A stretch of 51,082 nucleotides of DNA, the filler included, from Dimargaris cristalligena (Eukaryota): the NCBI GenBank assembly GCA_003614675.1. It is 2 parts of 2 records of this genome, joined end to end, with 100 filler letters (N's around TTAATTAATTAA, not from the genome) between each part and the next. Parts side by side here need not be neighbours in the genome. Positions count along the whole stretch, not along the records: positions 1 to 25,511 come from ML002560.1; 1 more part is not named here. The stretch is one strand, 5' to 3'. Made by a program: the position numbers and the translations under genes. Position 1 is the first letter of the stretch, and every line of letters starts with the position of its first letter. The notes under the pieces were generated by a model. It had not been told where the DNA came from. It saw nothing but the letters and a program-made list of their open reading frames with translations, and made no database searches. Shown here piece by piece: positions 10,720 through 17,877 of the stretch.

Positions 10720-11532
10720 CTAGGTTTTGACAGGTCCAACCTTATCAGCGCATTTCTTTTCCTCATTGAATGATAAGTTGCTCGATGTCTCAAAGTTGAC
10801 CGTCGATTGGGGTTTTTGCTCTTGGTCGGCTCTCGGCCTGGTCCTGTCCTGGCGGCGGGACTTCGAGTGGTCGTTTCCGATTTCAATATTGGCGGAGATG
10901 AGACTATCAAGGAGTTTGTCGAGACGCTTCATTTCTTCCTTGATGGAAAAACTGCCCGCTGTTCCGAACCTGGCCTTCAATTTGACTGTTTCGTCGTGAT
11001 CCGCTCTGGGTTCGACCATGGCTCGACGACGAGACTGCGAGTGGTCGTTTCCAATTTCGATATTGGCGGCGATGACATTGTCAAGGAGTTTGTCGAGGCG
11101 CTTCTTGGTGTCCCTGGTGGAAAATCTACGGGACGTTGCCCCATTGGGTTCGAAAGTATTGCTACGGCGTAGCTTATCGAGTAGATCGCCGACTTTGTCG
11201 AGGGTACCGCCTACACCCTCCAAAGTTTTGTCGAGGGTATCGCCCACACCATCCAGAGTTTTGCCGACCGTGTCGACCAAACCATCGAGAAGGGCACGCT
11301 CGGTAACGCCACCATTGTCGGTGACCCTGAAAGTGGCGGGGTGGATCCCATCTTTGAACAGTATCAACTTGGCCCGTTTTTCTTTGGTCTTCGGTTCGTC
11401 CTTGCCTTTGGCAGCGGCGTAGAAGTTGGTCGACCAACGTTCGGCCCGTGGGATCAAGCCAGTTGGGGTGGAAAGGGCGTCGCAGGCAATGGCCAGAAGT
11501 GCCAGGGTCAGCGCAGTAACAGTGAGCTTCAT
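10720..11532 (-). CDS. Secreted Kex2-processed repeat precursor A (270 aa): signal peptide, 42-aa amphipathic segment, 2 core peptides
   Basis: Signal-like N-terminus MKLTVTALTLALLAIACDA. Cores KR-LDKLLDNVIAANIEIGNDHSQS-RR and KR-LDKLLDSLISANIEIGNDHSKS-RR. The N-terminal ~60 aa align with precursor B. Confidence 0.88.
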   Translation of the reverse strand: MKLTVTALTLALLAIACDALSTPTGLIPRAERWSTNFYAAAKGKDEPKTKEKRAKLILFKDGIHPATFRVTDNGGVTERALLDGLVDTVGKTLDGVGDTLDKTLEGVGGTLDKVGDLLDKLRRSNTFEPNGATSRRFSTRDTKKRLDKLLDNVIAANIEIGNDHSQSRRRAMVEPRADHDETVKLKARFGTAGSFSIKEEMKRLDKLLDSLISANIEIGNDHSKSRRQDRTRPRADQEQKPQSTVNFETSSNLSFNEEKKCADKVGPVKT

Positions 11533-11717
11533 AGTGTAATGTAATGGGTTTCCGCCAAAGAGACAGCAAAGGTCAAATCAGGATAAAGGAGTACAATGGT
11601 AATAGCCGACAGTTCGTACAGTACGACTTATATAACAATAAAACCGGCCAAAGAAATCCTGATTAGGTAGTCGAGAAGTGTGGGTTGCGAGATATAGGTA
11701 TGGGTTGCCGTGGGGTA

Positions 11718-11723
11718 TTTATA
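11718..11723 (-). promoter_or_regulatory. TATA box upstream of precursor A
   Basis: TATAAA(TA) on the minus strand about 185 bp upstream of the ATG at 11532. Precursor B has the same motif at a similar distance. Confidence 0.5.
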
Positions 11724-14873: not shown

Positions 14874-14879
14874 TTTATA
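14874..14879 (-). promoter_or_regulatory. TATA box upstream of precursor B
   Basis: TATAAA(TA) on the minus strand about 220 bp upstream of the ATG at 14656. Confidence 0.5.
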
Positions 14880-17148
14880 TTAGATCTCCAATGGAGCATA
14901 TATGGTCCGGGTTGGAGCTCGCTGGCATATATTGCATTGAATGGCCGGTGAGTAATATGGCTCGCACATTATGACTAGAGCAGATCTATGGTTTCTGGGG
15001 TGGCTTGTTAATTGGAGTGTCCTATAATGGCGGCACAGGAGTCCCTCCGGCTCGGCTCAGTGAGCGCTTCACCATCCCCCTAATCCGCTCGGCTCCTCTT
15101 TCGTAGATTTTATCCAATGGCATCATACTTGGTCCATCCGACCCACCAAGCCAAGTAGCTTAGTGAATGGTGCTCAATATTACATCGCCAACAGTAAACA
15201 GCCTTGTTCATAATTCTTCTACATATGAAAGTTGGAATCCCCTTAACACCTCCTGGCCGTGGGGCTCATTATGAGGGAGGGGTGCTGCATATTTTTGCAG
15301 GGGTTTGAATATCGCTGCTTTCAACTTAACTGTGACCGTAGGGGATGCCCCGGGGGTATAGGGTGGGGAGCCTAAGGGAAATTGGCGGAAAAACTAGAGG
15401 TTGCTAATGGAGAGAGAAAAAGAGGGGGAGAGGTATCACATTATATCCCAGGAGAAACGAAATGTGGAGTGCTATTAATACTGTTTTGATAATCGGTGGA
15501 ACGTGGGGAGGAGTAGTATCGCTTAAATGGCAATCAGTCAATATTCCCACCTCTCAATGGCCCATTAAAGGGAATATTATCCTGGCTCCTTCTGGTGTTC
15601 TGCAGTTTCCCCTTTGCCAATCACTAAGCATACATACATCGCTCCATTAGTCGTGGCCGACTCCGCAATTCGGTCTATTAAGGCCAGTGTTGGTGAAGTG
15701 GTCGCACAGTCGAAGCAGCACAGCAGCCGACAGTGCTCTTGGAAGTATCCTATGGATGATGGGTCTGGTTTTTCCAAATGACCCACAGGTGGCGTGGCTC
15801 TCATAATGAATAATGAAGTGTTGGGCGGTCAGAAGAGGTATCCACTAGGAACAGCGGACCTAATGTCGTTCGGGTACTTTGGCTGGGTTGGCATTATTCA
15901 CCATCCGTCCAGCATCTATAGACGGTTCGGCATGGGTGGAAGCACGCCCCCAGTCATACATTAGAAAATAGAGTATAATTTTAGGCGGTCGAACCTACAA
16001 TGGGTTCTAACCATAAAAAGAAGCGTGTTTTTACCGCGGTAGATCAATCTGATGGACTGACCGCCAATAGTGGCCAAGAATCCCGCCATGGCAGCCGTTT
16101 TAAAGCCAATATTCGGGATAGTCGTTTGATCAGGTTAGTTTGGTGATCGGCGGTACAGTTATCATTGATGCAGATGCGTTCTAGAGTGCTACCCCCCCTA
16201 AAGAAGATTATGTATTTAATAGGTACCCCAAGAAGAACCGTCCCAGATCCTACAGGTTGAGTTACTCCATTATATAAATACTGACGTTGCCGTCCTCTAA
16301 CTCACTGTTAACCGGCCTTAATCTTACTCCATATGCTTCTTTAAATTATATCCATCTCGTTGTAGTTACCGTGAACTACTCTATACTTATTTTTGTAACT
16401 TGGTTGGCGATGCCATTGTATTTTTGAGGCTCACTGAATAGTATAGGCCGCTATGTTGGATAAAGAAGGTATAAAGGAAGTGAGGCTTTAGCGCAGAGCT
16501 TAAATGCCCCTGGCATCTAAAGCTATCGAAGGTGTAGGCCCGATACCGCCGATGATAAGGTGTTCCTAGAATATACCATATTTTGACTCAATTGGCAACC
16601 TCTGGAGCATTGCAGATTATCATTAAAGTCGCTTTTCTGATGATCAAGTACATCTAAATACTTAGTTCAGATGGTTATCACCCGAAAAATCGCTGTGAAA
16701 TAGATAGCATTATTGCCAGTATTGTCACTTTTAACCAATTATAACGGGTCTACCAAATGGCCCATTCTCTATATAGCTGGACTAAGGCTTCTTGATGTAC
16801 ACCCACTACTTTTAAATCCTGCTCTATCCGGCTTCCAATTTGAAATCTAGAGATGTAGAGGCATCCAAATGGTTTACGATGACCCGAATAATCCTATACG
16901 ACAAGGTCAAATTATATGTTGTGAAAACATTGAAAAATCACCTACAGATAATTATTTTTAGAGGGTTATATTATTGCGATATAATGATCGCAGTATCAAT
17001 GTAAATAAAGACATCCGGGGAAGACCAAAGACAGTCTAAACTAAAAGTTATTTGTAATGTTAATAAATGTAAACTAACTAACAGCTATGGTTGCTCACAA
17101 AATCTATATCGGCAGCCACATCGTATTCAGTACTTATTAGGATGGCTT

Positions 17149-17877
17149 TTACGGTTTGGTAGCATCGGCCTGGGGCTCGACGGCGGCCTTAACTGAATCA
17201 TCCGCCTTGACCTCGGGTTCGGGTTTCGTTTCGGGCTTAGTTTCGGGCTCGGCAGCAGGCTTAGCCTCGTCGACCTTGTCCTCGCGGCGAGACCGGGAGT
17301 GGTCATTGAGGAGTTCCAAATTGACACCTACTACATTGTCTAGAAGCTTTTGGAACCGCTTTTCCGGCTTGGTAGCATCGGCCTGGGGCTCGACAGCGGC
17401 CTTAACTGAATCATCCGCCTTGACCTCGGATTCGGGTTTAGTTTCGGGCTCGGCAGCAGGCTTAGCCTCATCGACCTTGTCCTCACGGCGAGACCGGGAG
17501 TAGTCATTGAGGAGCTCCAAATTGACACCCACTACATTGTCCAGAAGCTTTTGGAACCGCTTTTCCGGCTTGGTAGCATCAGCCTGGGGCTCGACGGCGG
17601 CCTTAACTGAATCATCCGCCTTGACCTCTGGTTCGGGTTTAGTTTCAGGCTTAGTTTCGGGCTCGGCAGCAGGCTTAGCCTCGTCGACCTTGTCCTCACG
17701 GCGAGACCGGGAATAGTCATTGAGAAGTTCCAAATTGACTCCCACTACATTGTCCAGAAGCTTCTGGAAACGGGGATGAACCAAGGCGCTGCCGAAGGGC
17801 TCGGCGGGGGCTGCCATAGTAGACTGGGAAGCCAGGGCCAGGACAATGGCAGAGATGATGGAGAGAGTGACCTTCAT
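17149..17877 (-). CDS. Secreted Kex2-processed repeat precursor C (242 aa): signal peptide plus 3 x (core peptide + acidic Pro/Glu/Lys spacer)
   Basis: Signal-like MKVTLSIISAIVLALASQSTMA. Cores PR/KR-FQKLLDNVVGVNLELLND[YH]SRS-RR, each followed by a 43-47 aa spacer EDKVDEAKPAAEPETKP...ADATKP(EKR). Confidence 0.9.
   Translation of the reverse strand: MKVTLSIISAIVLALASQSTMAAPAEPFGSALVHPRFQKLLDNVVGVNLELLNDYSRSRREDKVDEAKPAAEPETKPETKPEPEVKADDSVKAAVEPQADATKPEKRFQKLLDNVVGVNLELLNDYSRSRREDKVDEAKPAAEPETKPESEVKADDSVKAAVEPQADATKPEKRFQKLLDNVVGVNLELLNDHSRSRREDKVDEAKPAAEPETKPETKPEPEVKADDSVKAAVEPQADATKP
17152..17769 (-). repeat. Tandem coding repeat, 3 units of 213, 201 and 204 bp
   Basis: Near-identical units that differ mainly by a 12-bp indel in the spacer and by synonymous changes; the last unit is cut short by the stop codon. 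Confidence 0.95.

Follow-up and report, generated by a model that had tools for sequence, protein, structure and literature searches.

Three minus-strand genes carry one repeated core

The stretch of DNA analysed here, which we call the window, comprises 51,082 nucleotides of the early-diverging fungus Dimargaris cristalligena (assembly GCA_003614675.1). Within 7.2 kb of it, three paralogous genes (g1, g2 and g3), each opening with a signal-like N-terminus, combine a single 22-residue core with three different spacer designs. We think it probable that they encode repeat proteins processed by KEX2 (KEPs), in other words precursors from which copies of the core would be released as secreted peptides.

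In g1 (10720-11532, minus strand), an open reading frame (ORF) of 270 residues that starts with ATG, the signal-like N-terminus is followed by a leader with an internal Lys-Arg pair (KR), a 70-residue fragment and two cores (11032-11097 and 10858-10923), each preceded by KR and followed by Arg-Arg (RR). The 5' ORF of g2 as assembled (13802-14656, minus strand; 284 residues from its ATG) encodes a signal-like N-terminus, a leader containing KR and RR, seven tandem 24-residue units with cores from 13919 to 14416, and a 36-residue out-of-frame tail. At the junction of units 7 and 8 (13907-13918, minus strand), a deletion of 2 nucleotides (nt) relative to the 72-nt period shifts the frame, so that units 8-11 follow in the shifted frame (13633-13914, minus strand) up to a stop codon at 13633-13635. 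The third gene, g3 (17149-17877, minus strand), is an ATG-initiated ORF of 242 residues with three 201-nt repeats, whose cores lie at 17704-17769, 17491-17556 and 17290-17355. Each g3 repeat consists of one core, RR and an acidic spacer of 43-47 residues rich in Pro, Glu and Lys; spacers 1 and 2 terminate in KR, and spacer 3 continues to the stop codon. Tandem Repeats Finder picks up both arrays, with periods of 72 nt in g2 and 201 nt in g3.

The relationship between g1 and g2 extends upstream of the repeats. Their leaders are homologous (44% identity over 64 residues, E 8e-15) and have an internal K-T-K-[ED]-K-R site in common, and the two genes are therefore paralogues beyond their cores. 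The original prediction from this DNA, which held that the spacers differ completely, was too strong in this respect, but the spacer designs do differ from gene to gene.

The 70-residue fragment of g1, which is bounded by KR and RR of the g1 leader, contains a tandem repeat of its own at 11194-11290 (residues about 80-121), with a period of 33 nt, or 11 residues, of the type T-L-D-x-V-G-D. L-L-D motifs occur in this repeat too, which might be related to the core in a degenerate form. The region gives a weak, below-threshold Pfam match to DUF1664.

The core keeps the same boundaries in three contexts

We aligned the 16 putative units (core numbering 1-22), built a profile from the alignment and ran it unfiltered on the whole window translated in all six frames, which comprised 1642 open segments. 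The profile recovered exactly 16 units, at 48.7-68.2 bits each, and the next best segment scored 6.2 bits. All 16 fall within g1-g3 (two in g1, seven plus four in g2 and three in g3), and chance is not an issue as their source. Eight positions, K3, L4, L5, D6, N12, E14, N17 and D18, are the same in all 16 units, exactly the set that had been proposed from the sequence at the outset. The proposed bracketing of the cores, by KR or RR (once Pro-Arg, PR) on the upstream side and by RR on the downstream side, was likewise confirmed at 15 of 16 flanks on either side. Upstream we found RR ten times, KR four times and PR once, before the first g3 core, and in the remaining unit the frameshift destroys the site. 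Downstream, RR follows every unit except the last one of g2, which has 21 residues and runs into the stop codon. After the upstream site, all intact units continue with Phe or Leu and then with Asp, Gln or Thr.

These core boundaries stay constant regardless of what separates the cores. The g2 units abut directly (0 residues), the g1 cores are separated by fragments of 9 and 33 residues, and the g3 cores are set apart by 43-47 residues; in none of the 16 units does a dibasic pair occur inside the core. The identical boundaries in differing contexts are the decisive feature for a processed-peptide architecture. The core itself is anionic, with a net charge of -3 in the g1/g2 form and -1 in the g3 form.

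A 2-nt deletion divides the g2 array as assembled

Upon alignment of the g2 array in its 72-nt register, the phase is kept up to unit 7, and two bases are missing right where unit 8 begins. That unit accordingly measures 70 nt rather than 72, reading TT..ACAAG where units 6 and 10 have TTCGACAAG, and 142 nt, not 144, separate the starts of units 7 and 9. For units 8-11 the open frame is a different one, which extends over 13633-13935. The copy numbers of 2, 11 and 3 that had been predicted therefore add up to the 16 units found by the profile scan, but the 11 copies of g2 are split into seven in frame and four in a second frame. Similarly, the description of the locus as three intronless ORFs on the same strand holds in that there are three minus-strand ATG-ORFs, but g2 as assembled is not one intact ORF.

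The sequences of the units bear on the origin of the deletion. Differences among units 6, 8 and 10 amount to 2-3 nt and those between units 7 and 9 to 2 nt, compared with 7-19 nt for other unit pairs, which points to a recent block duplication. A recently duplicated block is where an assembly error is likeliest, and a fresh mutation in it would show no decay yet. The missing bases may thus reflect an assembly error or a real mutation.

The cores are under strong purifying selection

Counts of synonymous and non-synonymous differences by the Nei-Gojobori method reveal how the cores have been maintained. Among g2 units 1-7 the proportion of synonymous differences per site (pS) is 0.67 and that of non-synonymous differences (pN) 0.062, a ratio of 0.09. 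For the cores of g2 units 8-11, pN/pS is 0.12, and it amounts to 0.17 between g1 and g2 and to 0.32 between g2 and g3. In g2 units 1-10, variation affects 18 of the 22 third codon positions, but only three first and three second positions. Because the variation sits mostly at third positions, the g2 copies must be old at the DNA level and have been held constant as protein in this frame. Together, these values show strong purifying selection on the peptide sequence itself.

The codon-position pattern also fixes the coding strand and the frame, which identifies the long antisense ORFs as by-products of the repeat. One of these, a 277-residue antisense frame across the g2 array (13884-14717, plus strand), was considered as a gene and ruled out by the same pattern of variation.

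Signal-like N-termini and the sequence rules for KEPs

To judge secretion signals and transmembrane segments in g1-g3, we used a home-made heuristic based on Kyte-Doolittle (KD) hydropathy. All three N-termini have Lys2 and a hydrophobic stretch whose KD mean over 10 residues is 2.4-3.0. Small residues occupy -3/-1 of a putative cleavage site near residues 19, 19 and 22, respectively. Of 63 ATG-ORFs of at least 70 residues in the window, only five pass the N-terminal hydrophobicity cut. Three of these are g1-g3, and the other two, of 70-72 residues, are without basic pairs. No later transmembrane-like stretch occurs in g1-g3, where the best 19-residue KD window after residue 30 reaches 0.24-0.47. 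By this heuristic, the signal-like N-terminus that had been noted on each ORF holds.

Two published screens define KEPs by a SignalP signal peptide, no transmembrane segment and at least three similar repeats between KR, RR or KK sites (PMC6339444, PMC7329392); the repeats have to be 8-100 residues long in one of them (Umemura, PMC7329392) and to cover 15% or more of the protein in the other (Le Marquer, PMC6339444). Cores account for 16% of g1 (2x22/270), 54% of g2 (7x22/284) and 27% of g3 (3x22/242), and the number of repeats is seven in frame, or 11 if read through, in g2 and three in g3. On sequence grounds, both screens would be expected to retain g2 and g3, with the signal and transmembrane rules judged by our heuristic. 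The Kex2-precursor architecture proposed for all three genes holds, and g1 on its own has too few repeats for these definitions.

A family of this kind is in keeping with what is known of KEPs. A survey of 1461 fungal strains detected them in 1345. Of its 7878 KEPs, 2560 were without a homologue, and the Zoopagomycota had the most per strain, 11.56 (PMC7329392). With KEPs so widespread, so often without homologue and densest in the Zoopagomycota, a lineage-specific family is the expected case, and g1-g3 are probably a lineage-restricted KEP cluster, not a new kind of system. Like g1-g3, the KEPs of both surveys have a signal-like start, no transmembrane segment and repeats bounded by KR or RR, and they are mostly specific to a genus or lineage (PMC6339444, PMC7329392). 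Unlike typical KEPs, the present ones form a cluster of three paralogues with one core and three spacer designs. None of the conserved motifs that the two surveys name in their main texts is this core, although their full lists may include these genes.

The core family has one candidate relative outside the window organism

A phmmer search with g2 against 1.84 billion representative sequences returned 37 matches. The top two were g3 and g1, at about 121 bits each, and we examined 33 of the other 35. One plausible outside relative emerged among the examined matches, a hypothetical protein of 141 residues from Dimargaris xerosporica (KAJ1969747.1; P0026 below). It has a signal-like start and units of 20-24 residues between RR pairs, with the motif K-L-F-D..A-D-V.V-L-N, so that it shares with the core the pattern K-L-[LF]-D..(aliphatic).A-[ND]-V.V.N. 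Unlike the cores in the window, it does not keep E14 and D18, and its leader shows no similarity to that of g2. A word-seeded search with P0026 returned its own record only, leaving it as a KEP-like orphan itself.

Most of the other examined matches to g2 came from unnamed proteins with a 24-residue repeat (among P0003-P0036), which we rejected as a periodic chance similarity. Their repeat, I-L-A-D-T-N-E-L-Q-T-D-W-x-N-G-G-R-L-D-L-L-L-D-A, aligns to the g2 repeat via R.D.LLD...A...E...D with E values down to 8.6e-17, and a few of the matches are other repeat proteins. Two of these unnamed proteins had no match in PHROGs, for which reason we do not call the group phage proteins.

Pfam searches with g1-g3 gave nothing above threshold, or noise driven by the repeats. 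A KAP_NTPase match on g3 (27.3 bits) lies within the Pro/Glu/Lys spacer and was set aside as compositional. We also considered a pentapeptide-repeat or beta-helix reading of N7, N12 and N17, and rejected it on the 24-residue period, which does not fit, and on the lack of any such Pfam match.

Further searches pointed in the same direction. A word-seeded search with g1 returned its own record only, a metagenome contig scan gave 134 pattern matches of which none was confirmed, the best E value of a profile search against the PDB was 0.59, and ESM Atlas look-ups with P0026 and g3 gave best scores of 0.80, within the chance range. In the literature we found no account of such peptides under Kickxellomycotina pheromones or Dimargaris secreted peptides, and the core word matched one unrelated starfish paper. 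As far as these searches reach, the core family appears to be confined to the window organism and Dimargaris xerosporica. That single relative would by itself point to a source in the Kickxellomycotina, probably the Dimargaritales. The initial remark that the family was not a recognised one is therefore upheld, with no Pfam or PDB match and a single weak outside relative among the 1.84 billion representatives. The search that had been suggested, with a profile built from the cores, agrees: a double-unit profile run against 5.8 billion longer proteins retrieved the queries' own records only.

Predicted processing of the precursors

From here on, the steps of processing and the functions are what we infer, in addition to the architecture, conservation and purifying selection observed above. 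In the KEP route as PMC9769878 describes it, the signal peptide is removed in the endoplasmic reticulum (ER), KEX2 then cleaves in the late Golgi, carboxyl-terminal to the dibasic pair, and KEX1 strips the trailing basic residues before the peptide is secreted. For g1-g3, a signal peptide would take the precursor into the ER, a Golgi kexin would cleave behind every KR and RR and, with less certainty, behind the single PR, and a Kex1-type carboxypeptidase would trim the trailing RR. The secreted products would be linear, unmodified, anionic peptides of 22 residues, the same 22-mer from all three genes. An artefactual g2 frameshift would mean 16 copies, a real one 12. If g3 is processed, it would also release its three acidic spacers of 43-47 residues as a second peptide species, and if its first core were left uncut at PR, that copy would keep a 14-residue extension.

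Several observations weigh against this reading. Secretion and processing by kexin are predictions from the sequence, and the putative signal peptides of g1-g3 are called by a heuristic. The Kex2 motif is given in PMC8528282 as Lys or Arg at P2 and an invariant Arg at P1, and the PR site ahead of the first g3 core departs from this canon with its Pro at P2. With two repeats, g1 falls below the minimum of three used in the KEP screens. Both g2 ORFs, unlike g1 and g3, are missing from a collection of 15 billion proteins, and g2, frameshifted as assembled, may be decaying. The similarity of P0026 to the core is weak (phmmer E 1.6e-5; hhalign 73% probability, 50% identity over 20 columns). The helical amphipathicity of the core is moderate only, with a hydrophobic moment of 0.36-0.42 that is reached by 2.5-8.6% of 5000 shuffles. 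Finally, the g3 spacers between repeats, which differ by one 4-residue indel, show 16 synonymous and two non-synonymous differences (pN/pS 0.04) and are constrained as much as the cores. This conservation weakens, for g3, the view of the core as product and the spacer as waste.

The conserved g3 spacers would also fit a different arrangement, in which g1-g3 are repeat proteins that are secreted or bound to the wall without being processed. The 24-residue units would then be structural, for instance as helices of a fibrous or surface protein, and RR would be part of the module; Pro/Glu/Lys-rich spacers conserved like cores resemble wall-spanning linkers. The AlphaFold model of the g2 5' ORF has one short helix of about 19 residues per unit, at low confidence, which points the same way, as does the match of g2 to the many unnamed proteins that also have a 24-residue unit. 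Against such a structural role, the basic pairs flank the core precisely on either side in three spacer contexts and never occur inside it, and the upstream pair is a canonical KR in g1 and g3. The other 24-residue repeat proteins lack the combination of signal and dibasic sites and look like chance periodic similarity. Nor is there a confident fold: the mean predicted local distance difference test score (pLDDT) of the AlphaFold model is 39.6, with no fold, and the ESM Atlas model of g3 has a pLDDT of 0.33, which fits a polyprotein better than a folded repeat domain. We consider unprocessed repeat proteins unlikely.

A processed KEP cluster would matter for several reasons. We know of no KEP-derived peptide that has been studied in this lineage, probably the Dimargaritales. 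If the peptides are made, g1-g3 would provide a well-defined, strongly constrained KEP family in a mycoparasitic lineage. The three-gene design, with the same core and with spacers absent, short or long, amounts to a natural experiment that marks the exact ends of the peptide. The peptides could bear on signalling among these fungi or to their fungal hosts.

Candidate functions of the 22-residue peptide

On a helical wheel, the invariant polar residues (K3, D6, N12, E14, N17 and D18) and the invariant apolar ones (L4 and L5) lie all round the helix, which suggests that the sequence is read specifically by a protein partner. The 22-mer may therefore be a sequence-specific ligand, acting either as a signal for the fungus itself or as a ligand or effector aimed at its host. 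We think it less likely that it serves as a bulk surfactant or lyses membranes.

A more specific version of this idea holds that the 22-mers are a secreted peptide signal with a specific receptor, either a pheromone for mating or self-recognition, of which g1/g2 and g3 would encode two alloforms, or a cue at the haustorial interface with the host fungus; the Dimargaritales are described as haustorial mycoparasites (PMC9866270). We rate this proposal as rather unlikely. If true, no peptide signalling system would have been described in the Zoopagomycota before it.

The narrower reading as alpha-factor-type pheromone precursors, a special case of the KEP reading in which a G-protein-coupled receptor would read g1/g2 and g3 as two alloforms, draws on the resemblance to yeast alpha-factor. 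There, too, several genes (MFalpha1 and MFalpha2) encode several copies of a linear peptide released by Kex2 and Kex1, as outlined in PMC9769878. Multi-copy, multi-gene, Kex2-bracketed linear peptides of 9-24 residues are the alpha-pheromone pattern, and a 22-mer falls within that length class (PMC6339444). Nearly all pheromone KEPs are without a DUF3328 gene nearby (PMC7329392), as is this locus, and pheromone chemistry in early-diverging fungi outside the Mucoromycotina and Blastocladiomycota is called 'largely unknown' in the literature. Unlike alpha-factor, however, the g1-g3 peptide is anionic, Pfam searches of g1-g3 with E values up to 1 gave no MF_alpha or MF_alpha_N match, and no STE13 dipeptides (XA/XP) follow the cleavage sites. 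No mating-type or receptor gene is found among the 30 neighbouring ORFs that we scanned, and nothing ties the locus to sex. A pheromone of the alpha-factor type is, on balance, improbable.

Ece1 of Candida albicans, the precursor of candidalysin, yields non-identical peptides, only one of which is a toxin. It resembles g1-g3 as a secreted polyprotein that is cut by Kex2 at KR and trimmed by Kex1, in the account of PMC9769878. Unlike Ece1, the window has one core repeated 16 times, and this core is anionic rather than cationic-amphipathic. Ustilago maydis Rep1 is comparable in that one secreted precursor with Kex2 sites gives rise to many related extracellular peptides, and the same source presents it as a KEP whose peptides form amyloid-like fibrils (PMC9769878). 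The likeness of g1-g3 to Rep1 or Ece1 is one of mode of production only.

By analogy with Rep1, the 22-mers might be repellent-like peptides that coat aerial hyphae or spores after self-assembly, possibly into amyloid-like fibrils. The centre of the core, N-V-I-A-A-N-V-E-V-A-N, is rich in beta-branched residues and Asn, and the high copy number would suit a bulk material. However, polar residues that never vary and a net charge of -3 favour specific recognition over bulk assembly, the amphipathicity is no more than moderate, and the similarity found is to P0026 alone; our searches returned none to Rep1, which was itself not compared directly. Such a role is quite improbable.

The build of a signal followed by dibasic-flanked repeats is also that of the ustiloxin precursors (as reported in PMC9769878), which raises the question of whether the cores are cyclised or otherwise modified after cleavage, as in the dikaritin class of ribosomally synthesised and post-translationally modified peptides. 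In a Pfam scan of 30 other ORFs of the window, taken in part from the 62 stop-to-stop ORFs of at least 110 residues and in part from shorter ones between genes, we found no DUF3328/UstYa or other peptide-modifying family; short or intron-split genes could escape such a scan. Tyr, which the known cyclisations need, is absent from all 13 cores of g1 and g2 and occurs in two of the three g3 cores, at position 19, where the third has His. The core is also 22 residues long, as against 8-14 in known precursors. We therefore regard dikaritin-type modification as highly improbable, and with no modifying enzyme nearby and no Tyr in the g1 and g2 cores, linear, unmodified peptides are to be expected.

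Genomic surroundings

Upstream of the genes, the sequence TATAAATA occurs on the minus strand at 11716-11723, 184-191 nt before the g1 ATG, and at 14872-14879, 216-223 nt before the g2 ATG, in both cases inside a short alignable stretch of the two upstream regions. The window contains nine occurrences of this sequence compared with 2.58 expected, and we suggest that the copies upstream of g1 and g2 are a core promoter element.

The three genes are embedded in sparsely coding DNA. The intervals 11533-13632, 14657-17148 and 17878-21391, of 2.1-3.5 kb, are without convincing ORFs, and the housekeeping genes further on are packed tightly. The next large ORF past g3 is an open frame of 591 residues without a Pfam family (21392-23167, minus strand). 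On the other side of the cluster, an ORF at 8890-10101 belongs to the aldehyde-dehydrogenase family by Pfam and is probably a gamma-glutamyl phosphate reductase. Pfam further identifies ordinary neighbours in the window, namely an EF-hand protein, a DEAD-box helicase, an ABC ATPase and an ATR-type kinase. The last of these, a PI3K-like kinase with UME, M-HEAT, FAT, PI3_PI4_kinase and FATC domains, spans two plus-strand ORFs (36495-42119 and 42228-45686) that lie 108 nt apart and presumably form one gene with a short intron. Runs of 44 N bases occur at 25512-25555 and 25568-25611.

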